Source: Bacilli bacterium
GTDB taxonomy: Bacteria > Bacillota_I > Bacilli_A > RF39 > UBA660
Direction: 5' to 3'
DNA: 64,000 nucleotides
NCBI GenBank assembly: GCA_022795155.1
Contig: JAAWGF010000003.1
Span: forward strand, 13,775-77,774
The translations under genes and the position numbers were made by a program. Each line of letters opens with the position of its first letter. Position 1 is the stretch's first letter. Below, in pieces: positions 4,193-44,797 of this stretch. The notes beneath the pieces were generated by a model. It was not told where the DNA came from, ran no database searches, and saw nothing but the letters and a program-made list of their open reading frames with translations.

Positions 4193-4417
4193 AAAAGATA
4201 TTATTCTTTAAGGACGAGGATAACCCGCGGTACCACCTTAATTCATAATAATCTTTATGCTCTTAATATTTTTAACGCAAATGTACGTCATATATTTAAC
4301 ATATATGAAGCTAAGAAAGTAAGTTCATAATATTCAATTAAAAGTTTTCACCAACCACTTTTTCTCTAAAAACATCTATATTATTACTACTCTTTCGTAA
4401 TCACTTTTTATAAACTA
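4193..4417 (-). promoter_or_regulatory. T-box riboswitch leader, leucine-specific (UGGU bulge, putative CUU specifier)
   Basis: Minus strand reads AATTAAGGTGGTACCGCGGG (plus 4224..4244), a near-perfect match to the T-box consensus AAnnnGGGUGGnACCGCG. The UGGU bulge pairs with the ACCA end of tRNA-Leu (discriminator A). Antiterminator: UUAAGG/[UGGUACC]/GCGGG-UUAUC-CUCGU/CCUUAA. Stem I carries AGAGA..AGUGG..GGUGAAA distal-loop-like motifs and GAACUUA (CUU Leu codon). A weak AU-rich hairpin and U-run follow. Confidence 0.8.
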
Positions 4418-8737: not shown

Positions 8738-9178
8738 TTATTCATTCTTTTTATTCATTTTCCTTATTCTTTTTAATATAAATAGTATTATAAATAGTAG
8801 CACAATTATAATTGTGGCAATTACATAATTATACAGATTGGTGGGTTCTTCTTCTCTTTCTTCAACAATTTCCTCTTGGTCTAAAATGTTGGCAAAAATA
8901 TATTCTCCACTTTCCTTAGAATACAAAAAATATTCTCTTGCATATCTTGCTTTATACTCATCATTTTTTAACTTAGATAATTCTTTAGTTAAATTTGTTT
9001 CATCTTCTTGTAATTTTGTTAAGTTATTTTGTAAGGTTTGTTGTTCTAAACTAAGATTTTTTATATTTAACAGCATCGAAAAAGCACTAAAAATAAAGTA
9101 TGATATTACTACAACACTAAGACCACCAAAAATAATAAGTCTTCTTTTTGATTCTTTTGTTACTTTTCTTTTTACCAC
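8738..9178 (-). CDS. divIC: Septum formation initiator DivIC/FtsB family
   Basis: N-terminal TM, coiled coil, and NDEYKARYAREYFLYSKESGEYIF matching the B. subtilis DivIC C-terminal motif (DEDYVTELARRDLFMSGDGEIIF). Conserved yabP-yabQ-divIC order. Confidence 0.85.
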   Translation of the reverse strand: MVKRKVTKESKRRLIIFGGLSVVVISYFIFSAFSMLLNIKNLSLEQQTLQNNLTKLQEDETNLTKELSKLKNDEYKARYAREYFLYSKESGEYIFANILDQEEIVEEREEEPTNLYNYVIATIIIVLLFIILFILKRIRKMNKKNE

Positions 9179-9852: not shown

Positions 9853-10110
9853 TTATTCAGCTTCATTATAAGCATCAAGAATTGCTTTTTCAAACATTTC
9901 TCTTGTTTCTTGATTTATTGGATGAGCTACATCATGACGTTTAGTATCATCGATTTTACGGCTTGGCATAGCAATAAATAATTTGTCATCGCCTTGAATA
10001 ATTCTAATATCACGAACAGCGAAACAGTCATCAATTACTACTGAGACAATTCCTTTCATTCTTGAGTTTTCCTTTTCTGTCTTATGAACATTTACAGATG
10101 TAATTTTCAA
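9853..10110 (-). CDS. spoVG: Septation protein SpoVG
   Basis: 85 aa; MKITSVNVHK...GIVSVVIDDCFAVRDIRIIQGDDKLFIAMPSRK...HDVAHPIN is near-identical to the SpoVG family. Confidence 0.92.
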   Translation of the reverse strand: MKITSVNVHKTEKENSRMKGIVSVVIDDCFAVRDIRIIQGDDKLFIAMPSRKIDDTKRHDVAHPINQETREMFEKAILDAYNEAE

Positions 10111-10432: not shown

Positions 10433-11212
10433 TCATCTAGGATAACCAATATACATTGTCCCTTTTGTTTTGATACCACCCATTCCATCTTTACCATACT
10501 TGGTATTTTCTAAAATATTGATTAAATCAATATCTTTGCTGATGTCGGATAAGCTGACACGAGTCGCAATAATGGCAGGATCTAATGCATGAATATTGAT
10601 GCGTTTAGGACTAGAAGCAAAGTTAGCACCAGCTTTAATTAATTCTTCGTAGTCTGATTGACAAGCACCAGCAATAATAATTAATTTTTCATGACTATGT
10701 TCATATTTTCTCGCCTCTTTAATTGAAGCAACAAAATTTTGGCTATTTTTATATGCTGACAAATCATCACGCCCACCTTTTTTTTTATAATAAGCATCAT
10801 GGCCAGTTATAACTAAGATATTAGGATTGTGAAGTTCTAGTAATTCACGAATTTTAAAAGGAACATTTTCTTCATCTTCTCTAACACCGATGGCCATTAA
10901 ATTGTCTTCTTCATAATATTTTAAACATTTATCTAAATATTCATTATCCCCATCAATATGTAATATTTTGCCTGGTAAATAAAAAAATTCGCTTCGATCT
11001 AGATCCAAATTGGGCTTTATACGTTCTAAAAATTCTTGATCTTCTTCAAATTCTTGATCATATATAATTAAGTCATCAACAGGACTATCCGCAATTAGTC
11101 TAACATTAATTCCTTTTAAATAGCAAATATCATTGTCAATTGATATAATTTTAAAAACCATATCATTATTATAGGAATTTCTAGTAACTAAATCTCCTTC
11201 TTTAAAATCCAT
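10433..11212 (-). CDS. yabG: Sporulation-specific protease YabG
   Basis: 259 aa; the N-terminus MDFKEGDLVTRNSYNNDMVFKIISID..VRLIADS matches the YabG family; yabG-veg adjacency as in Bacillus. Confidence 0.8.
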   Translation of the reverse strand: MDFKEGDLVTRNSYNNDMVFKIISIDNDICYLKGINVRLIADSPVDDLIIYDQEFEEDQEFLERIKPNLDLDRSEFFYLPGKILHIDGDNEYLDKCLKYYEEDNLMAIGVREDEENVPFKIRELLELHNPNILVITGHDAYYKKKGGRDDLSAYKNSQNFVASIKEARKYEHSHEKLIIIAGACQSDYEELIKAGANFASSPKRINIHALDPAIIATRVSLSDISKDIDLINILENTKYGKDGMGGIKTKGTMYIGYPR

Positions 11213-11303: not shown

Positions 11304-12104
11304 TTATTTATTAGATTTAGCGAATTTTACACCTAATCCTGCTATTCCTGCTAAACAAATTGCACCAATTACAATATACAATTGTGAACTTACATCAGCT
11401 GTTTTTGGGTTTTCAATAGTTGTAGTTTCTGTTGGCTGTGTTGGTTCAGTAGGATTTGTTGGCTTAGTTGGTTCTGGTGGAACTTCTCCTTTACAAGTAA
11501 TCAGCATATAGTATGTAGTTCCAGTTGCATTGAATTCACTAGTTTGTAAAGTTGCAAATTGATTAGTAAAATAATCAGTCGATAAATTCTTACCTGAGCT
11601 TGTCACGTTATTAGAAGTAATAATTGACTCAATTGAACTACGGTCTTTTATTTCATACAATCTTGTATAACTAGCACTACTAGATTGAATTTTATGCGCA
11701 TATGTTTGAATTTCACCATCTATAACTTTAATTCTAAGTAGATAAATTGATTGTCCATTATCATATCCCATATTGAAATTTTTTGGAATATTAATATACA
11801 TAGTTGCAGAATCTGTTTTTGAATCCCATGTTTGTCCATCTTTAACTTTAAATTCTAATGGAACGACATCAACAATTTGTGAAGTCAAGCTATCTCTATA
11901 AAAATGTGCGATTGCTTGTTTAAAAATGTCTTGTTCTCCATTAGCAATACTCATGTCTAGTTTCCCATTGCCACCAGTCATATAGTATTCATAATATTGA
12001 TTATCAAATCTTATGGTGTAGTCCTCAGCATTTGCTGTTCCCATACCAAATATACCAACTACTGTAAACAAAAATGCAAATAATATTTTTCCTATTTTTT
12101 TCAT
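11304..12104 (-). CDS. Cell-wall-anchored surface protein (sortase substrate, NPKTA sorting signal)
   Basis: Start chosen at ATG 12104 (MKKIGKILFAFLFTVVGIFGMGTANA signal peptide, RBS AGGAGAG). C-terminus: PT-rich stalk (PTKPTNPTEPTQPTETTT), NPKTAD, hydrophobic TM, KFAKSNK tail. Confidence 0.7.
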   Translation of the reverse strand: MKKIGKILFAFLFTVVGIFGMGTANAEDYTIRFDNQYYEYYMTGGNGKLDMSIANGEQDIFKQAIAHFYRDSLTSQIVDVVPLEFKVKDGQTWDSKTDSATMYINIPKNFNMGYDNGQSIYLLRIKVIDGEIQTYAHKIQSSSASYTRLYEIKDRSSIESIITSNNVTSSGKNLSTDYFTNQFATLQTSEFNATGTTYYMLITCKGEVPPEPTKPTNPTEPTQPTETTTIENPKTADVSSQLYIVIGAICLAGIAGLGVKFAKSNK

Positions 12105-12272: not shown

Positions 12273-13112
12273 ATGAAAAAACAAACAAAAAAATTTTGGG
12301 TTTCATATATATTATTTACAATTATTTTAAGTTTTTCCCTATATAAAATTACAGCTAAGCAAATTAATTATCGTGAGATTGAAAGTCAAGAAATAGATAT
12401 AAGAAAATTAGCATCTATTATAGAAATAAAAGATATGAATGATAATACAGAAATAATTAATCCACCTGAAGAAAATATTGAACCTGAAGAACCAGATATT
12501 AATATTCCACCAAATGATTACTGGTATTATATAAATATCCCACTTATTAGTGTCGATTTTAATTCTTTGATTGCTAAAAATAATGATACAGTAGCTTGGA
12601 TAGCATTAAATGGCACTAACATTAATTACCCAGTTGTTCAAGCTAGCGATAATGACTATTATCTATATCACGCCTATGACCACTCTGATAATCAAGCTGG
12701 TTGGGTATTTATGGATTATCGTAATGATCCAATAGAATTTAGTAAAAATACGGTTATTTATGGTCATGGCATGAATAACAATACAATTTTTGGAACACTT
12801 AGATATATCACTGAAAATTGGTGGTATAATAATCCAGATAATCATATTGTTAAATTATCAACACCAAGCGAAAACACATTATGGCAGGTTTTTAGTGTCT
12901 ATACTATTCCTGAAGAAACATACTATATTCAGACAGATTTTACAGATAACAATATATATAAAGAATTCTTAAGCAAATTACAAGCTAGAAGTATTTACAA
13001 TTTTAATGCAAGTGTAAATGAAAATGATAAAATAATTACTCTTTCATCTTGTTATAATAATGATTTAAGAGTTGTCTTACACGCTAAATTAATTAAAAGA
13101 GAAAAAAGATAA
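12273..13112 (+). CDS. srtB: Sortase (class B-like)
   Basis: 279 aa; N-terminal membrane anchor, VIYGHGMNNNTIFG (catalytic His region), ITLSSCYN (TLxTC catalytic Cys), conserved Arg near the C-terminus. Divergent from its putative substrate. Confidence 0.85.
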   Translation: MKKQTKKFWVSYILFTIILSFSLYKITAKQINYREIESQEIDIRKLASIIEIKDMNDNTEIINPPEENIEPEEPDINIPPNDYWYYINIPLISVDFNSLIAKNNDTVAWIALNGTNINYPVVQASDNDYYLYHAYDHSDNQAGWVFMDYRNDPIEFSKNTVIYGHGMNNNTIFGTLRYITENWWYNNPDNHIVKLSTPSENTLWQVFSVYTIPEETYYIQTDFTDNNIYKEFLSKLQARSIYNFNASVNENDKIITLSSCYNNDLRVVLHAKLIKREKR

Positions 13113-38381: not shown

Positions 38382-38963
38382 TTACATTGTTCGTTCAATT
38401 TTTTCTAGTGTTTCATCACGACCTAATTTAGTAACATTTGAAAACATAACAAAATCGTCTCCTACAACTAATTCTAAATCTTCTAGCAATTGCGCTCTTT
38501 GCTTTTGTTGTAAGGTAATTCCAACTTTATCAGTTTTGGTAGCGACAATCGTAACTGGTATCTTATAATGTTTTAAAAAATTATACATCATTGTATCATC
38601 ACTACTTAACTTATTACGAAAATCAATTAACATAAAAACTTGTTTTAAATTAGGACGATTAACTAAATAGTCCTCCATCATTAAACCAAATTTTTTTTGT
38701 TTTTGCTTACTTAAATTAGCGTATCCATAACCAGGTGCATCAACTAAATAAAAACTATTATTAACTAAATAAAAATTAATTGTTTGTGTTTTACCTGGAT
38801 TTGAAGATGTTCTAGCATAATTTTTACGACTTATAATCGTATTAATAAAACTACTTTTTCCAACATTAGAACGTCCTACTAATAAATATTCAGGTAATTC
38901 GTCAGTCGGATATTGACTACGTCTTACAGCACTAATAACTAAATCAACACTAGTGATTTTCAT
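38382..38963 (-). CDS. engB: Ribosome-biogenesis GTPase EngB (YsxC/YihA)
   Basis: 193 aa; G1 GRSNVGKSSFIN, G3 DAPGYG, G4 TKTDK. Confidence 0.92.
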   Translation of the reverse strand: MKITSVDLVISAVRRSQYPTDELPEYLLVGRSNVGKSSFINTIISRKNYARTSSNPGKTQTINFYLVNNSFYLVDAPGYGYANLSKQKQKKFGLMMEDYLVNRPNLKQVFMLIDFRNKLSSDDTMMYNFLKHYKIPVTIVATKTDKVGITLQQKQRAQLLEDLELVVGDDFVMFSNVTKLGRDETLEKIERTM

Positions 38964-39095
38964 TTTTTCACCTTTTTTCTACTAAATACTATTTTAATTA
39001 TACTCTAACGTTTATTTTTAGTCAACTTATGATTTTTATTGACATTATAATTATTAATGTTATAATACTTGAAAAAAAAGGTGGGGGGGGAAGTT

Positions 39096-39992
39096 ATGAG
39101 CAATCGGATTATAAAAGGTATAAATATTTTGTCAAATCAAATGATAAATTTGCACATCGATAAAGAACCTATAATCATTGATGAAATGCAACTAACATAT
39201 GAAAATGATAGCCAAAAAGCTGAAGTAATTTCTACGGAAACAGGCATACCAGTTAAATATATATATGACTATTCAAAAAATTATACTAAAAATTGGATTA
39301 AAATTGATGGTAAATGGTTTTTCGTAAAGAAAACATATGATAATTTAAAATTTTTTAATGAATTACTCGGTCAAGAAATATCTAGTTATTTTCAACTAGA
39401 AACAGTTAATTATAAAATTGCTAAAAAATTTGAAGACTGTTATTTTGACAATTGTTTATTATCAGAAAACTTTTTTGATAATAATTATGATTATCTTACT
39501 TTTGAAGATTTACAAATAGATACTATAGATAAAAAATTAGCCGAAAGATTAAATTTAATCAAACAAGTATGTAAAAAATATAAAGATGAAAATTATTTAT
39601 TATTAGAAGATATTATAAAAATGAGCATTCGCGATTTATATTCTAATATGCATGACCGTCATAATCGAAACTTCTTCTTTAAAAAAAATGATAATGGCAT
39701 TAGACTGGCACCACTATTTGATTATGAACATTCTTTTATAACACCACCTTCTTTATATCAGAATCCACTATTAAGATTAGACATTTACGATAAAGAAACT
39801 GGAGAATTAATAAAAAATGATGATAATTTTCAAGAATCAATTAATAGATTAATGGATATAAACATTGAAAAATTATTAGAAATTACCCAAGAAAAAAATG
39901 GTATAAGTATTTCAGACGGACTTAAAAATATATTTATTAATCATGATAGAAATGCTAAAAACATCGTTAAAAGTTTTTACTTAAGAAAATAG
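39096..39992 (+). CDS. HipA C-terminal-domain-like kinase, orphan (no adjacent partner gene)
   Basis: Start taken at ATG 39096 (MSNRIIKG), 5 nt after a G8 tract acting as the SD; the track ORF starts at 39069. Catalytic loop MHDRHNRNFFF is a perfect DxHxxN. LAPLFDYEHSF matches HipA LAPAYDL. NELLGQEISSYFQLETVNYKI matches the HipA_C start. Confidence 0.5.
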   Translation: MSNRIIKGINILSNQMINLHIDKEPIIIDEMQLTYENDSQKAEVISTETGIPVKYIYDYSKNYTKNWIKIDGKWFFVKKTYDNLKFFNELLGQEISSYFQLETVNYKIAKKFEDCYFDNCLLSENFFDNNYDYLTFEDLQIDTIDKKLAERLNLIKQVCKKYKDENYLLLEDIIKMSIRDLYSNMHDRHNRNFFFKKNDNGIRLAPLFDYEHSFITPPSLYQNPLLRLDIYDKETGELIKNDDNFQESINRLMDINIEKLLEITQEKNGISISDGLKNIFINHDRNAKNIVKSFYLRK

Positions 39993-40010
39993 AGACAATT
40001 TTTTGTCTCT
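39991..40010. terminator. Bidirectional hairpin terminator between convergent genes
   Basis: AGAGACAA-TTTT-TTGTCTCT perfect 8-bp inverted repeat flanked by T/A runs. Confidence 0.65.
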
Positions 40011-40021
40011 ATTTTATAATA

Positions 40022-40735
40022 CTAACGAATATATTTTTTCTTTGGCGCTAATTTTGATAATAGAGCAATTATTCCAACTAAAGAAATTATTACTACTATA
40101 ATAAATCCATTATTGCTTAAATCTAAAGTTTTTGGATTTGTTGCATTAGTTTCAACTAAAACATAAGTGCTAAAATGGTCTGTTTCAAATTCAGCATAAT
40201 TATCTTTAACAGATACATTAAATTTAGTTAAATCTCCATTATCTTCATTTGCTCTTGTATCATTAAATTTTATATTATTATTTATTAAATAAGAACGTTT
40301 ATATATTTTACCATGCATATAAACAAAATTAGCTTCATACATTTCTCGCTTATTATCATGTTCATATAAAATATTACTAATAACTAAATCCGTTTTTGTT
40401 TCTTTAATTTTTTTATATAGTAATTCTACGGAATAACAATTATAAAAAGTATCATCAGCATCAATAAACATAATATATTCGGAATTACTATTATCTATAC
40501 CATACTGTCTAGCAATACCTGGTCCACTATTTTTTTAAAGTGTTAATTCCACTATATTAATCCAATTTTTTAAAAAAGAAATTTCTTCTTGATAATTATA
40601 ATCAGATGCATCATTTACTATATAAACATTTAAACAGTTCTTTATTGTTTGTAAAGAAATACTTGCTAATGTTTTAAAAATTGTTTCTTTGGCATTATAG
40701 GCTGGTATTATTATATCAATCATTTCAATCACCAC
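40022..40735 (-). pseudogene. Family-2 glycosyltransferase pseudogene: in-frame TAA splits it, and the remnant is fused in frame to a sortase-type cell-wall-anchor tail
   Basis: Track ORFs 40535..40735 (IIIPAYNAKETI...SISLQT, GT2 N-terminus) and 40022..40471 lie in the same frame, separated by TAA at minus 40537..40535 next to an A7 run. Read-through gives ...ELTL*KNSGPGIARQYGIDNSNSEYIMFIDADD (GT2 DxD motif). The second ORF ends ...FSTYVLVETNATNPKTLDLSNNGFIIVVIISLVGIIALLSKLAPKKKYIR, which is an NPKT sorting signal plus TM plus a basic tail. Confidence 0.6.
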
Positions 40736-40748
40736 ATTTTATTATTTT

Positions 40749-42530
40749 TTATAAATTATTTAAGAATTCTAATAAATTTTTAGCTACTTTTTCAGGAAGT
40801 ATTTCTGATAATTCCTGTGTGCTAGCTTCTTTCATTTTAGTTAAATTATGATATTTTTTAAGCAATTCTTTCTTTCTTTTTTCGCCAATACCTTCAATAT
40901 TATCAAGTGTACTAGATAGACTCCCTTTGCTCCTTATCTGTTTATGATAATTAATCGTAAATTTATGAACTTCATCCTGCATTCGCTCTAAATAATAAAA
41001 TAAATTACTTTTCCTATCAATTGGTATTTCAACAATTGGATTATGTGCTAGTAGCGCATTAGTAGCATGATGATCATCCTTTTTTAATCCGACAATAGGA
41101 ATATTTAAACCAAGGGAAGTAATAACTTCTCTAGCAACATTAATTTGTCCTAGCCCACCATCGACAATAATTAAATCAGGTTTAGTTAGGTCATCTTTTA
41201 AAACACGGAAATATCTCCGATATATAGCTTCATGCATTGTCCCATAATCATCATTTTTATCTAAGGTTATTTTAAATTTTCGATAATCATTTTTACTAGG
41301 TTTACCATCAATGAAAACAACCATACCTGATACATTAAATGTTCCAAAAAGATGAGCATTATCAAAAAGTTCAATACGATCTAATTTACTTAAATTTAAA
41401 ATATTTTTAAGTTCTTCATTCGCACCAATTGTTTTTTCTTCATCTCTTTTAATAAGTTCGAATTTTTCTTCTAATAAAATTTTCGCATTATTATTAGCCA
41501 TTTCAACTAATTTATTTTTAACACCTTTTTGCGGTTTAATAATTTTTACATTTAAATATTCAAATAAAAGTTGTTCATCAACAACACTTGGTACAATAAT
41601 TTCTTTTGGCAGTATTATACCTTTATCATAAAATGTTGCTATATATCTATTTACTTCCGCTTCTAATTCATCAATTAAAGGCATAATTTTTGAGTGCTTT
41701 TCAACTATTTTCCCACCACGAATAAAAAATACTTGCATTGATAAATAGCCTTTATCGGTATAAAAGCCAAATATATCCGTATTAATATTGTCTTTTATTT
41801 CAACTTTTTGTTTTGTTAAAACTAGTTTTATATAATCAAGCATCTCTTTTAACTCTTTTGCTTTTTCATAATTCATATTTTCACTTTGAAGATACATCTC
41901 ATCCTCAATTTTCTTAGTTATAAAACTATGATCCCCATTTAAAAAATGGATTATTTCATTTTTTATTTGGTCAATTATTACTTTATCAATTTTATATTGA
42001 CAATACCCTAAACATTCATGAATATGGTAATATAAACATGGTTTTTTATCAAATGTTTTACATTTACGTAAAGGATACAACCTATTTAATAAGTTAACCG
42101 TATTTCTAGCGGCCGTAACATTAGGATATGGTCCATATAAATTGGTATTCTTTTTACGTTTGCGATTAATATTTCGAACAATTGATAACTTCGGTATATC
42201 TTCATTTATAAATTCAATATATGGATAACTTTTATCATCACGTAACAAAATATTATATTTTGGATCATATTTTTTAATTAAATTATTTTCTAAAATTAAA
42301 GACTCAATTTCTGATTCAACAACAATATATTCAAAATCGACAATCTCACTAACTAATTTAGCTGTTTTACCAGTATGAGTTCCTCTAAAATAAGAGCTTA
42401 GACGCCTTTTTAATCTTTTGGCCTTGCCAACATAAATAATCACCCCATCGCAATTTTTCATTTGGTAACAGCCAGGTTTCTCTGGCACTAAACTCAATTT
42501 TTGTTTTATTTTTTGATTTACATTATCCAT
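40749..42530 (-). CDS. uvrC: Excinuclease ABC subunit C
   Basis: 593 aa; N-terminal GIY-YIG (GCYQMKN...IIYVGKAKRLKRRLSSY), UvrBC-interaction region, RNase H-like endonuclease domain and C-terminal HhH. Confidence 0.96.
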   Translation of the reverse strand: MDNVNQKIKQKLSLVPEKPGCYQMKNCDGVIIYVGKAKRLKRRLSSYFRGTHTGKTAKLVSEIVDFEYIVVESEIESLILENNLIKKYDPKYNILLRDDKSYPYIEFINEDIPKLSIVRNINRKRKKNTNLYGPYPNVTAARNTVNLLNRLYPLRKCKTFDKKPCLYYHIHECLGYCQYKIDKVIIDQIKNEIIHFLNGDHSFITKKIEDEMYLQSENMNYEKAKELKEMLDYIKLVLTKQKVEIKDNINTDIFGFYTDKGYLSMQVFFIRGGKIVEKHSKIMPLIDELEAEVNRYIATFYDKGIILPKEIIVPSVVDEQLLFEYLNVKIIKPQKGVKNKLVEMANNNAKILLEEKFELIKRDEEKTIGANEELKNILNLSKLDRIELFDNAHLFGTFNVSGMVVFIDGKPSKNDYRKFKITLDKNDDYGTMHEAIYRRYFRVLKDDLTKPDLIIVDGGLGQINVAREVITSLGLNIPIVGLKKDDHHATNALLAHNPIVEIPIDRKSNLFYYLERMQDEVHKFTINYHKQIRSKGSLSSTLDNIEGIGEKRKKELLKKYHNLTKMKEASTQELSEILPEKVAKNLLEFLNNL

Positions 42531-43110: not shown

Positions 43111-43704
43111 ATGAAAACGATTAAAAAAAATGTAACTAATGAAATTATCATAAATAAATCAAGATTTATTACTAAATTAATAAAGATTAATAATGAAGAA
43201 GAAGTAAGAGAAAAATTAGCTCTTTTAAAAAGAGAATACAAAGACGCTACTCATTATTGTTATGCCTATATTACTGGTAATATTAAAAGATTTAACGATG
43301 ATGGAGAACCTAGTGGAACAGCTGGTATGCCGATTTTAAATGTTTTAGAAAATAATAATTTAACGAATATTTTGGGGGTTGTCATTAGATATTTTGGTGG
43401 TATTAAACTAGGTGCTGGTGGTTTAGTTAGAGCTTATACGAAAGCTATAACAGAATGTTTAAATCATATTGAAATAGTTAATTTAACTAGTGGCATAAAT
43501 TTTAAAATTGAATTTACTTATGATTTTGTCAAAAAAATTGATAACATTTTAAAAAACCAAAAAATTACTTATAAAGAATATGATAACAATATTATTTATG
43601 AATGTAGTTTAACAAAAGATAATTTTCAAAAATTAAAAAAAGAATTAGAAACTAACTCTTTAACTTTAGAAATAATAGATGAAACATTAGTCGAGATTGA
43701 TTAA
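43111..43704 (+). CDS. yigZ: YigZ/IMPACT-family protein (UPF0029)
   Basis: 197 aa; KSRFI..., DDGEPSGTAGMPIL, VIRYFGGIKLGAGGLVRAY are hallmark IMPACT N-domain motifs. Confidence 0.85.
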   Translation: MKTIKKNVTNEIIINKSRFITKLIKINNEEEVREKLALLKREYKDATHYCYAYITGNIKRFNDDGEPSGTAGMPILNVLENNNLTNILGVVIRYFGGIKLGAGGLVRAYTKAITECLNHIEIVNLTSGINFKIEFTYDFVKKIDNILKNQKITYKEYDNNIIYECSLTKDNFQKLKKELETNSLTLEIIDETLVEID

Positions 43705-43712
43705 TGTTTTTT
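43590..43712 (+). repeat. Direct repeat copy 1 (the native 3' end of yigZ)
   Basis: About 120 bp, about 95% identical to 44427..44549 (same orientation); includes the yigZ stop codon. Confidence 0.85.
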
Positions 43713-43727
43713 GATTTATAATATACA

Positions 43728-44030
43728 TTACTTAAATAATTCACTGTGGCTTCCAGTTGCAAAAAGTAATAAAATTAACTTTTCATCTTCCATTTGATAA
43801 ACCAAAAGCCAATCAGGTTCAATATGACATTCATAACAATCTTTATAAATCTTATTATTTATAAGATTATGATTTTTATATTTAGAGTCTAATGCTTGAC
43901 CATTCGCTAATACTTTAAGAACATCTAAAAATTTATTTTCATCTTTGCCCTGTTTCAAGATTCTCTTGAAATCTTTTTTAAATTGGCTAGTAAATTTTAC
44001 TTCATATTTGGTATTTTGCAAATCAAGCAT
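43728..44030 (-). CDS. yafQ: Type II toxin, RelE/ParE superfamily (YafQ-like mRNA interferase)
   Basis: 100 aa; YKDCYECHIEPDWLLVYQMEDEKLILLLFATGSHSELFK matches the YafQ C-terminal signature (ECHIKPDWLLIY...RTGSHSDLF). Confidence 0.8.
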   Translation of the reverse strand: MLDLQNTKYEVKFTSQFKKDFKRILKQGKDENKFLDVLKVLANGQALDSKYKNHNLINNKIYKDCYECHIEPDWLLVYQMEDEKLILLLFATGSHSELFK

Positions 44031-44321
44031 TTACTTTTTTAAATCCTCAAGCATTTCATACATATTGTGGTAGCCTTTTGTTTTCATCTTTCCATTTAAT
44101 ATATTTTCACCATCCTGTAGTGCTTCCAATAAATTTTCACTGGGTTTCGGATTTTTAACTTCAAATGGCAAACCGTCTTTATATATCAATTGTTTAATAG
44201 CCATATTTACAAATGTACTCATATTAAGCCCTAGACTTTTCAAAATTCCATTGGCAACTTCTTTGTCATGATTATCTACTTGTACACTAATTGCACTTGT
44301 AAGTGTTTCCATATTATACAC
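44031..44321 (-). CDS. dinJ: Type II antitoxin, DinJ/RelB family
   Basis: 96 aa; LKSLGLNMSTFVNMAIKQLIYKDGLPFEV matches the DinJ ribbon-helix-helix family. Stop abuts the toxin start (TAATG-type coupling). A palindromic operator lies upstream. Confidence 0.75.
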   Translation of the reverse strand: MYNMETLTSAISVQVDNHDKEVANGILKSLGLNMSTFVNMAIKQLIYKDGLPFEVKNPKPSENLLEALQDGENILNGKMKTKGYHNMYEMLEDLKK

Positions 44322-44426
44322 CTCTTTTTCAATTTTATGTTATCATATAATATTGTATATTGTCAATATAATATTTTAATTATATTCAATAATATTATAT
44401 GCAGATCAAAAAAATATATTAGCGAA

Positions 44427-44549
44427 ATTATTTATAAATATAGTTTAACAAAAGATAATTTTAAAAAATTAAAAAAAGAATTAGAAACTAACTCTTTAAC
44501 TTTAGAAATAATAGATGAAATATTAATCGAAAGTGATTAATGTTTTTTA
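44427..44549 (+). repeat. Direct repeat copy 2 (duplicated yigZ 3' fragment, non-functional)
   Basis: Encodes ...YSLTKDNFKKLKKELETNSLTLEIIDEILIESD, a duplicate of the yigZ C-terminus, without the rest of the gene. The track ORF 44268..44540 is an artefact of this fragment. Confidence 0.85.
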
Positions 44550-44797
44550 CAATTTTGTAAAGATTTATTAGACTTTTTACTATCTTTCAAAAGTTCATCT
44601 AAATTCACATTTAAATTCCTATACAACTTAATAGCTTCTTTATGCATAATATATGGTCGTGGTGGTGAAACAACTGGTCTTATCTGACAAGTACCAATAT
44701 CTTCAACATTACAAACTGAACAATAATCATCATATAAAGTTTTTGCAAAAATATCTTGATAATATTTTTTATAATTTTTTTCTATAATTCGTGCCAA
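44537..44797 (-). CDS. Hypothetical small Cys-containing protein
   Basis: 86 aa; CSVCNVEDIGTC motif; convergent with the yigZ duplicate (stops overlap). Confidence 0.35.
   Translation of the reverse strand: MARIIEKNYKKYYQDIFAKTLYDDYCSVCNVEDIGTCQIRPVVSPPRPYIMHKEAIKLYRNLNVNLDELLKDSKKSNKSLQNCKKH

Follow-up and report, generated by a model that had tools for sequence, protein, structure and literature searches.

A chimeric glycosyltransferase pseudogene ending in a class B-type sorting signal between uvrC and engB of an uncultured Bacilli bacterium

On the minus strand at positions 40022..40735 of a 64,000-nucleotide stretch of Bacilli DNA (the window), a reading frame that begins as a family 2 glycosyltransferase (GT2) is broken by a stop codon, resumes as GT2, and ends in the kind of C terminus that anchors surface proteins to the Gram-positive cell wall. 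Is this locus a gene for an unusual protein, an error or a programmed sequence, or the remains of two genes? We conclude with high confidence that 40022..40723 (-) is a nonfunctional chimeric pseudogene and that it marks the loss or replacement of a strain-variable island between uvrC and the hipA-like and engB genes.

Structure of the fused reading frame

Minus-strand translation of 40022..40735 gave a single frame with one internal stop, VVIEMIDIIIPAYN...NIVELTL*KNSGPGIARQYGI...FIDADD...RANEDNGDLTKFNVSVKDNYAEFETDHFSTYVLVETNATNPKTLDLSNNGFIIVVIISLVGIIALLSKLAPKKKYIR*. The frame is laid out over 40022..40723 (-) as 62 GT2 codons, a TAA, 100 GT2 codons, and 70 tail codons. Codons 1 to 62 (MIDIIIPAYN...VELTL; 40538..40723, -) are 97 to 100% identical to the N termini of homologs P0001 and P0002. 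The in-frame TAA at codon 63 occupies 40535..40537 (-); codons 64 to 163 (KNSGPG...FIDADD...RANEDNG; 40235..40534, -) hold the DxD motif and end at the junction with the tail; and the stop codon of the fusion lies at 40022..40024 (-). Since all orthologs begin MIDIIIPAYN, the ATG at 40723 is the true start, not the GTG at 40735. A listing of open reading frames (ORFs) cuts the same region into ORFs of 66 and 149 amino acids (aa).

The TAA differs from the TCA (Ser) found at codon 63 in intact alleles and in an uninterrupted allele of the fusion by a C-to-A change (TCAAAAAAT to TAAAAAAAT), which itself turned a run of six A residues into the run of seven (40530..40536) that adjoins the stop. 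TAA was read in the sequence of assemblies from five samples, L014 (GCA_948714555.1), L015, L018/L029, L030, and L031, and is implied by gene calls in two further assemblies, while TCA was present in six assemblies that carry the fusion and in strains with the intact gene. Because the same stop was seen in assemblies from five different samples, it is real and not a sequencing error. TAA serves as an ordinary stop codon throughout the window.

With the stop masked, Pfam model PF00535 (Glycos_transf_2) matched residues 4 to 146 (E = 6.6e-22; 78.7 bits against a cutoff of 23.3), covering the N-terminal GT-A core and its DxD motif (FIDADD); the last ~87 residues of the stop-masked translation gave no Pfam match. 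In a homolog search that covered 5.8 billion proteins, the intact orthologs P0002 to P0009 proved to be 312 aa long and to align with no more than the first 70% of the query, with identities of 97% for P0002 and 74 to 89% for P0003 to P0009. P0001, an uninterrupted version of the fusion (233 aa, no stop), was 97% identical from end to end and was the sole such match among the best 120 GT2 homologs. The sorting signal was matched by none of the 118 of these 120 that align with the first 67 to 88% of the query, to or just beyond the junction; most of them are 303 to 341 aa long and have a different, conserved C-terminal half. P0113 reached 98% coverage in a weak match (43% identity), and its C terminus is the usual GT2 half.

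Identity to the intact orthologs is ~97% up to ...RANEDNG (codon 163), and the sequences are unrelated beyond this point: across the break the sequence is ...FNDTRANEDNGFNNLLLLLGIKYD... in the intact gene and ...FNDTRANEDNGDLTKFNVSVKDNY... in both the window and P0001. In the GT2 alignment, E160 and D161 do not vary, and N159 and G163 hardly vary. Past the break, F164, T182, Y183, N188, S191, T193, N211, Y244, and F307 are invariant or nearly invariant among 18 aligned sequences, and all are missing from the fusion. The GT2 half is thus the remnant of an ordinary GT2 enzyme and not a working member of the family, its frame being interrupted at codon 63 and its conserved C-terminal half absent.

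The 70-codon tail (40025..40234, -) reads DLTKFNVSVKDNYAEFETDHFSTYVLVETNAT-NPKTLD-LSNN followed by a hydrophobic segment and SKLAPKKKYIR. Its NPKTLD motif (40121..40138, -), with Asp at P2′, is of the class B sortase type, and the hydrophobic segment GFIIVVIISLVGIIALL (40058..40108, -) precedes the basic end SKLAPKKKYIR (40025..40057, -). An exhaustive phmmer search with the 70-aa tail against 1.84 billion cluster representatives (a 50%-cluster library) returned 53 matches at an E value of ≤1e-3. The fusion aside, all lay at the extreme C termini of proteins of varied length, and 35 of 52 showed the order NPxTxD, hydrophobic stretch, K/R tail. The matches share the ending V(Y)R/Y..[ED][DE]NG....V.VKDGYA.FETDHFS.Y.L.E..., followed by NPxTxD. 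Full-length relatives carry typical signal peptides at their N termini, and their bodies matched no Pfam model.

Only two credible sorting-signal C termini were found in a six-frame scan of the window: this tail and the C terminus of the protein encoded at 11304..12104 (-). The latter, our comparator for the tail, is a likely genuine substrate of sortase SrtB, with a signal peptide, a Pro/Thr-rich stalk, NPKTAD, a transmembrane segment, and KFAKSNK. Next to it, a class B sortase, which would be the enzyme to recognize NPKTxD signals, is encoded at 12273..13112 (+) (TIGR03064 sortase_srtB, an NCBIfam equivalog model; 164.8 bits against a cutoff of 153.75). The fusion carries the elements of a sorting signal (NPKTLD-LSNN-GFIIVVIISLVGIIALL-SKLAPKKKYIR), and a putative cognate class B sortase is encoded in the same genome. 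It has no signal peptide: the full-length relatives of the tail and the genuine substrate begin with MKK and a hydrophobic stretch, while the N terminus of the fusion, MIDIIIPAYNAKETIF, is by inspection the first beta-strand of the GT2 fold.

Motifs that begin with Asn, such as NPQTN and NPKTG, are the recognition sequences of class B sortases. The tail's NPKT-x-D fits such an enzyme, because SrtB of Bacillus anthracis recognizes NPKTG and requires the Asp after it for full activity (PMC11987632). As judged from its sequence, the tail comprises the final beta-strands of a surface-protein domain and a genuine class B-type sorting signal.

The sortase and NPKTAD substrate genes adjoin a gene for the sporulation protease YabG (10433..11212; Pfam E = 4e-92); YabG, YqfD, YabP, and SpoVIF nearby point to a spore-forming Bacilli lineage of ~25% G+C.

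These results agree with much of the original prediction. It had described two same-frame segments of a decayed GT2 gene, split by a nonsense mutation and not a frameshift, and a C-terminal region foreign to GT2 that carries a sorting signal of the same type as the substrate at 11304..12104, the whole being an in-frame fusion of two unrelated genes. The single frame and the TCA-to-TAA point change, the Pfam match and the 312-aa orthologs, the failure of the last 70 residues to align with GT2 beyond ...NEDNG, and the homology of the tail to NPxTxD C termini bear this out. The stop itself also withstood scrutiny as a possible sequencing error, and an end-to-end alignment of the C-terminal region with intact GT2 proteins, which the prediction had named as a refuting outcome, did not materialize.

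The missing island and the order of events

Exact-protein look-ups of the site between uvrC and the hipA-like and engB genes in many assemblies distinguished several states. In state A, the site holds, in order, genes for two GT2 proteins (312 and 259 aa), three WXG100 proteins, two small ORFs, a 2411-aa protein, proteins of 180 and 237 aa, a DUF4176 protein, a 1545-aa FHA and FtsK/SpoIIIE (EssC-like) ATPase, and an 84-aa YukD-like protein. This arrangement was seen in the same species as the window (flanks 98.7 to 99.5% identical) and with orthologs down to 77% identity. State B is the uninterrupted 233-codon fusion, found in six samples (L005 to L010), and state B′ is the fusion with the TAA, found in the window, in the five samples read by sequence, and in the two assemblies scored by gene calls. 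State C, in which uvrC is followed directly by the hipA-like gene with nothing between them, was found in a sister lineage of ~90% identity (L013 and L017) and in L037. The latter contig (CAYOYB010000009.1) is from a GTDB representative titled "uncultured Muribaculaceae bacterium"; it has the Bacilli-type gene order yqfD, ybeY, uvrC, hipA-like, engB, der and a near-identical EngB, and its bin label is probably wrong.

DNA comparison from the uvrC side placed the break within these states. The first 533 nucleotides (nt) were 97.6% identical to the intact state A gene, the next 210 nt (window about 40018..40227) had no counterpart by BLAST at the loci of states A and C, and homology with all locus states returned at the terminator, followed by the hipA-like gene at ~87%. 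By contig coordinates, the state A segment exchanged for the 210-bp tail measures 16,957 bp and comprises the 3′ half of the GT2 gene, the second GT2 gene, and a type VII secretion system (T7SS) island.

The original prediction had called the locus a relic of a lost surface-protein/glycosylation cluster. Comparison does not bear this out as worded: since same-species strains carry T7SS genes at this site, and carry them without the tail, the lost cluster is a GT2 and T7SS island. WXG100, EssC-type ATPase, and YukD/EsaB-like genes, as expected of a Firmicute T7SSb island, occur in same-species strains L001 and L011, and the window has none of them in the interval from uvrC to the hipA-like gene. 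The island was also considered as a source of the tail and was rejected; its 2411-aa protein ends in ...EIEILDEID and has no sorting signal, and its last gene encodes the 84-aa YukD-like protein.

The T7SS island lies at 10001..20873 in L001 and at 1..8949 in L011 (GCA_022800535.1, contig JAAWQO010000001.1) and also occurs in L019, L023, and L026. It is always headed by the tandem GT2 pair (312 and 259 aa; ~71% identical to each other at the nucleotide level), including in relatives down to 77% identity, and we know of no description of two GT2 genes heading a T7SS island. The giant protein encoded after the WXG100 genes is 2411 or 2794 aa long (1262 aa where the call meets a contig end) and has no Pfam domain.

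A codon-by-codon comparison, polarized with intact genes, ordered the changes. The tail is 100% identical across all assemblies with states B and B′, so by this comparison the fusion arose once. Because six fusion assemblies keep TCA, the fusion came first and the nonsense mutation later. The B′ lineage gained S30C, F51L, S63* (TCA to TAA), and K128M, with R122H added on the branch of the window (L015 is without it), and the B lineage gained T111M. All four differences that separate the fused from the state A alleles are synonymous.

The fused lineages have accumulated at most 1 synonymous change alongside 6 that are nonsynonymous or nonsense, a ratio close to the neutral expectation for 397 nonsynonymous and 92 synonymous sites. 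Intact orthologs show nonsynonymous-to-synonymous counts of 20:31, 22:38, and 25:45, corresponding to a ratio of nonsynonymous to synonymous rates (dN/dS) of ~0.15. The two patterns differed by Fisher's exact test (6:0 versus 21:30; P = 0.008), with small numbers. Since the changes in the fused lineages are near the neutral ratio while intact orthologs are constrained, the gene is, by this measure, in neutral drift since the fusion. The locus thus shows disabling lesions, namely the truncation and fusion at codon 163 and the nonsense codon 63, as well as relaxed purifying selection relative to intact orthologs, the latter on small numbers.

Origin of the fusion and rival readings

Codons 160 to 163, which encode E-D-N-G (GAAGATAATGGA; 40235..40246, -), form the junction zone and are a candidate microhomology. 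Just before their tail-homologous segment, the relatives of the tail carry EDNG (P0127 and P0147), KDNG (P0173), EDDG (P0121), EENG (P0174), or NDNG (P0178), and the donor very probably read ..EDNG-DLTKFNV.. at the break. Because an EDNG-type motif is common to both parent families at this point, the sequences suggest a crossover inside up to 12 nt of common sequence, that is, a microhomology-mediated illegitimate join.

The donor gene was sought in several collections. No relatives of the tail were found in GTDB species representatives or JGI metagenomes, and no near-identical donor was found by phmmer in the 50%-cluster library. The best nonself match there, P0121 (62%), was rejected as the donor: it is a dockerin-repeat protein encoded at an unrelated locus beside reverse transcriptase and murC genes. 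A chimeric query made of the upstream part of P0121 and the window tail recovered only P0001 and relatives of 46 to 59% identity. A word-indexed protein search with the 70-aa tail came back empty and missed even P0001, a perfect superstring, and it also missed P0121 with a query holding 85 of its residues, so negatives from short queries in that search are uninformative. Used as bait in GTDB representatives, the hipA-like protein found only L037, at 57% identity and with an empty site, and its exact-protein look-up returned TAA-type loci only. No surface-protein gene follows the intact GT2 orthologs P0003, P0004, and P0008, all of which have T7SS genes there, and no relative with a surface-protein gene at this site was found.

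In the order of events that we propose, the first 163 of the 312 GT2 codons were joined in frame, as the comparison with intact genes shows, to the last 70 codons of the gene for an NPxTxD surface protein, a would-be class B sortase substrate. The join would have been an illegitimate recombination within the 12-nt E-D-N-G stretch, a motif carried by both parent families, either through an internal deletion in an unseen variant of the island or through imported DNA, anchored on the engB side, that replaced the resident 17 kb. The alleles show that the fusion came first and circulates as the uninterrupted 233-codon form, and that one sublineage, to which the window belongs, later gained the TCA-to-TAA change with S30C, F51L, and K128M; R122H was then added on the branch of the window. 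The product would already have been useless by then, since the conserved C-terminal 149 residues are gone and no signal peptide could bring it to sortase, and its gene may simply have drifted.

The original prediction had a deletion join the two genes. The join stands, and a simple internal deletion is now only one of two routes, the tail being linked to a divergent hipA-like allele. In the deletion model, to which we give close to an even chance, two steps were needed: an unseen island variant would have held the GT2 gene, further genes, the surface-protein gene, the terminator, and the divergent hipA-like allele, and an internal deletion from EDNG to EDNG would have fused the co-oriented genes. 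Both genes would share one strand, and the stop codon of the tail, 5 to 7 nt from the common terminator, takes exactly the place at which the island of state A has the end of its final gene. A different hipA-like allele could mark a different type of resident island, since this gene is hypervariable between close relatives (57% protein identity in L037, whose EngB is nearly identical). Against this model, no such island variant was found, the intact orthologs down to 77% identity all precede the series of GT2, WXG100, and giant-protein genes, and no collection searched held a closer relative of the tail.

The other route, which we also regard as a serious candidate at somewhat below even chance, needs one step. 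DNA from a more divergent relative, running from the 3′ end of a surface-protein gene through the terminator to the hipA-like gene, would have been anchored by homology at engB and joined illegitimately at EDNG, replacing 17 kb. Such homology-facilitated illegitimate recombination is established in naturally transformable bacteria. The pattern of divergence favors this route. A block of about 1.2 kb (~39038..40234), made up of the tail and the hipA-like gene, is 87% identical to the state A allele and 86% identical to the sister-lineage allele, while these two are 93.5% identical to each other. Flanks within the species are ~99% identical, against 87% nucleotide identity in the hipA-like gene, and the right-hand boundary of the block is sharp, identity rising to 99 to 100% at ~39038. 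The divergent hipA-like allele is completely linked to the fusion, and the competence genes comEA and comEC (by Pfam) lie a few kilobases away. On the other side, the searches described above identified no donor lineage, diversifying selection, and not foreign origin, may have made the hipA-like gene divergent, and natural transformation has to be assumed for this organism.

Could the fusion be a functional new gene? The uninterrupted 233-aa product would then be a membrane-tethered, truncated GT-A domain, and the TAA of the window a recent loss-of-function variant. The uninterrupted allele is kept in six samples with one amino acid change relative to the intact enzyme, and it retains the Pfam GT2 core (residues 4 to 146) with the DxD and ED motifs. 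It has, however, lost the C-terminal 149 residues with their invariant positions and has no signal peptide; a cytoplasmic N-terminal domain with a single hydrophobic helix and a basic end would be topologically awkward; the uninterrupted allele is no more widespread than the null allele; and the substitutions of the fused lineages are all nonsynonymous. A working fusion protein is thus probably not made, and we consider it very unlikely that the fusion is a functional gene. We give equally little credence to a young fusion-born gene whose helix was recycled from a sortase signal; in a milder variant, the scar would record a one-step homology-facilitated illegitimate recombination that removed a 17-kb T7SS island in a natural population of an uncultured Bacilli species.

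The remaining readings are extremely improbable. The low complexity, the local G+C content of 25%, and the homopolymer beside the stop might raise the suspicion of an artifact, whether a sequencing error at the TAA or a chimeric assembly at the junction, or of a tail that is simply the normal C terminus of a GT2 subfamily, but the identical TAA and junction recur in independently assembled samples from different sources, and among the best 120 GT2 homologs only the fusion allele P0001 matches end to end, none of the 118 partial matches reaching the sorting signal. Phase variation by slippage in the adjoining run of seven A residues, or read-through or recoding of the stop, would restore a full-length product only in defiance of the sequence, in which the halves share one frame with the TAA ahead of the run, so that a change in run length cannot remove the stop, the alleles seen (TCA with A6, or TAA with A6, that is, A7) differ by substitution and not by length, and TAA is an ordinary stop across the window. 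The run of A residues, to which the original prediction had drawn attention, therefore has no mechanistic role.

Several points weigh against the reading of a chimeric pseudogene that marks a lost or replaced island. The donor surface-protein gene was not found in the GTDB, JGI, 50%-cluster, or chimeric-query searches, so that the parental arrangement and the microhomology are deduced from family consensus and not from direct observation. The four synonymous differences from the state A GT2 gene (L001), at codons 121, 143, 157, and 158, all fall within the 130 nt that lead up to the junction (40235..40362), while the first 360 nt have almost no synonymous differences from L001, a clustering that may point to a more mosaic history than a single join. 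The selection test is based on only seven substitutions, and the uninterrupted 233-aa allele could, from its sequence, have some residual function.

Neighboring genes, implications, and related systems

The variable site that holds the pseudogene has conserved flanks. On the left is uvrC (40749..42530, -), which ends 25 nt ahead of the pseudogene start, and on the right is the GTPase gene engB/ysxC (38382..38963, -). A consensus terminator scan found nothing; direct folding revealed instead a strong bidirectional terminator hairpin at 39986..40015, with a 13-bp stem (free energy of -14 kcal/mol; z = -5.4) followed by UUUUCUU, which the pseudogene has in common with the convergent hipA-like gene. 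To judge from its position, the pseudogene probably continues to be transcribed at the end of the uvrC message.

The hipA-like gene (39096..39992, +) encodes 298 aa with a below-cutoff match to HipA_C (E = 2.6e-4) and has its own perfect match to a -35/-10 promoter at 39039..39066. Its counterparts lie at 8975..9874 in L011, 8977..9873 in L013, 6283..7179 in L037, and 3707..4667 in L005, and the gene is broken into two ORFs in L005, L006, L008 to L010, and L015.

Elsewhere in the window, a YafQ/ParE-family toxin (Pfam E = 1.8e-30) and a RelB antitoxin are encoded as a pair at 43728..44030 (-) and 44031..44321 (-). On either side of the pair lies a copy of a 173-nt direct repeat of 83% identity (43573..43745 and 44409..44581), which duplicates the 3′ end of an Impact_N/YigZ-family gene (43111..43704), the second copy forming the end of a 90-aa ORF (44268..44540). 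The arrangement looks like the footprint of a cassette insertion; sister-lineage L013 has a 132-aa ORF instead. The only Rfam match in the window was a T-box leader at 4207..4410 (-) (RF00230; 120.9 bits), and the 64 kb yielded no tRNA genes.

For annotation, 40022..40723 (-) should be marked as a pseudogene, neither as two small ORFs nor as a surface-anchored glycosyltransferase. The scar is a dated marker of variation within one uncultured, spore-forming, low-G+C Bacilli species, in which some strains have and others lack a 17-kb GT2 and T7SS island between uvrC and engB, and it offers what would be a clean natural case of two genes joined in frame across a microhomology of four codons. It also calls for caution in automated prediction of surface proteomes, since here a perfect sorting signal sits on a protein that could never be sorted.

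Set beside known systems, each part of the locus is recognizable. Like GT2 proteins of the GT-A fold (PF00535), residues 1 to 163 keep the nucleotide-sugar-binding core with PAYN, NSGPG..AR, DADD (the DxD motif), and NED, and among solved structures the closest in sequence is that of the putative GalT1 (PDB 5hea; E = 3.8e-11 over residues 1 to 124 of the intact ortholog). Unlike those enzymes, the pseudogene has a frame broken by TAA and a foreign sequence in place of the C-terminal 149 residues. The tail resembles signals of the IsdC type (Staphylococcus aureus NPQTN; B. anthracis NPKTG plus Asp) in its NPKT-x-D, short spacer, hydrophobic segment of ~17 residues, and K/R end, and, as in those systems, a putative cognate SrtB is encoded in the same genome, 27 kb away. 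It differs in having Leu at P1′ (Ala in the genuine substrate of the window) and not Gly or Asn, and in sitting on a fragment of a cytoplasmic enzyme that has no signal peptide and so would not be presented to sortase. The intact GT2 gene of same-species strains heads an island of the Firmicute T7SSb type, a type characterized by WXG100/EsxA, EssC, EsaB/YukD, and large polymorphic effectors; of this island the window retains nothing except the 5′ half of that GT2 gene. Taken as a whole, the locus belongs to a familiar class of chimeric pseudogenes and requires no new mechanism. The microhomology and the route here rest on family consensus, and the donor was not recovered, unlike in other chimeric pseudogenes formed by microhomology deletion or homology-facilitated illegitimate recombination. 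What the locus shares with them is an in-frame join of two unrelated ORFs at a short common sequence, with loss of a large segment and then neutral decay, of which the nonsense mutation and the surplus of nonsynonymous changes are the signs here.

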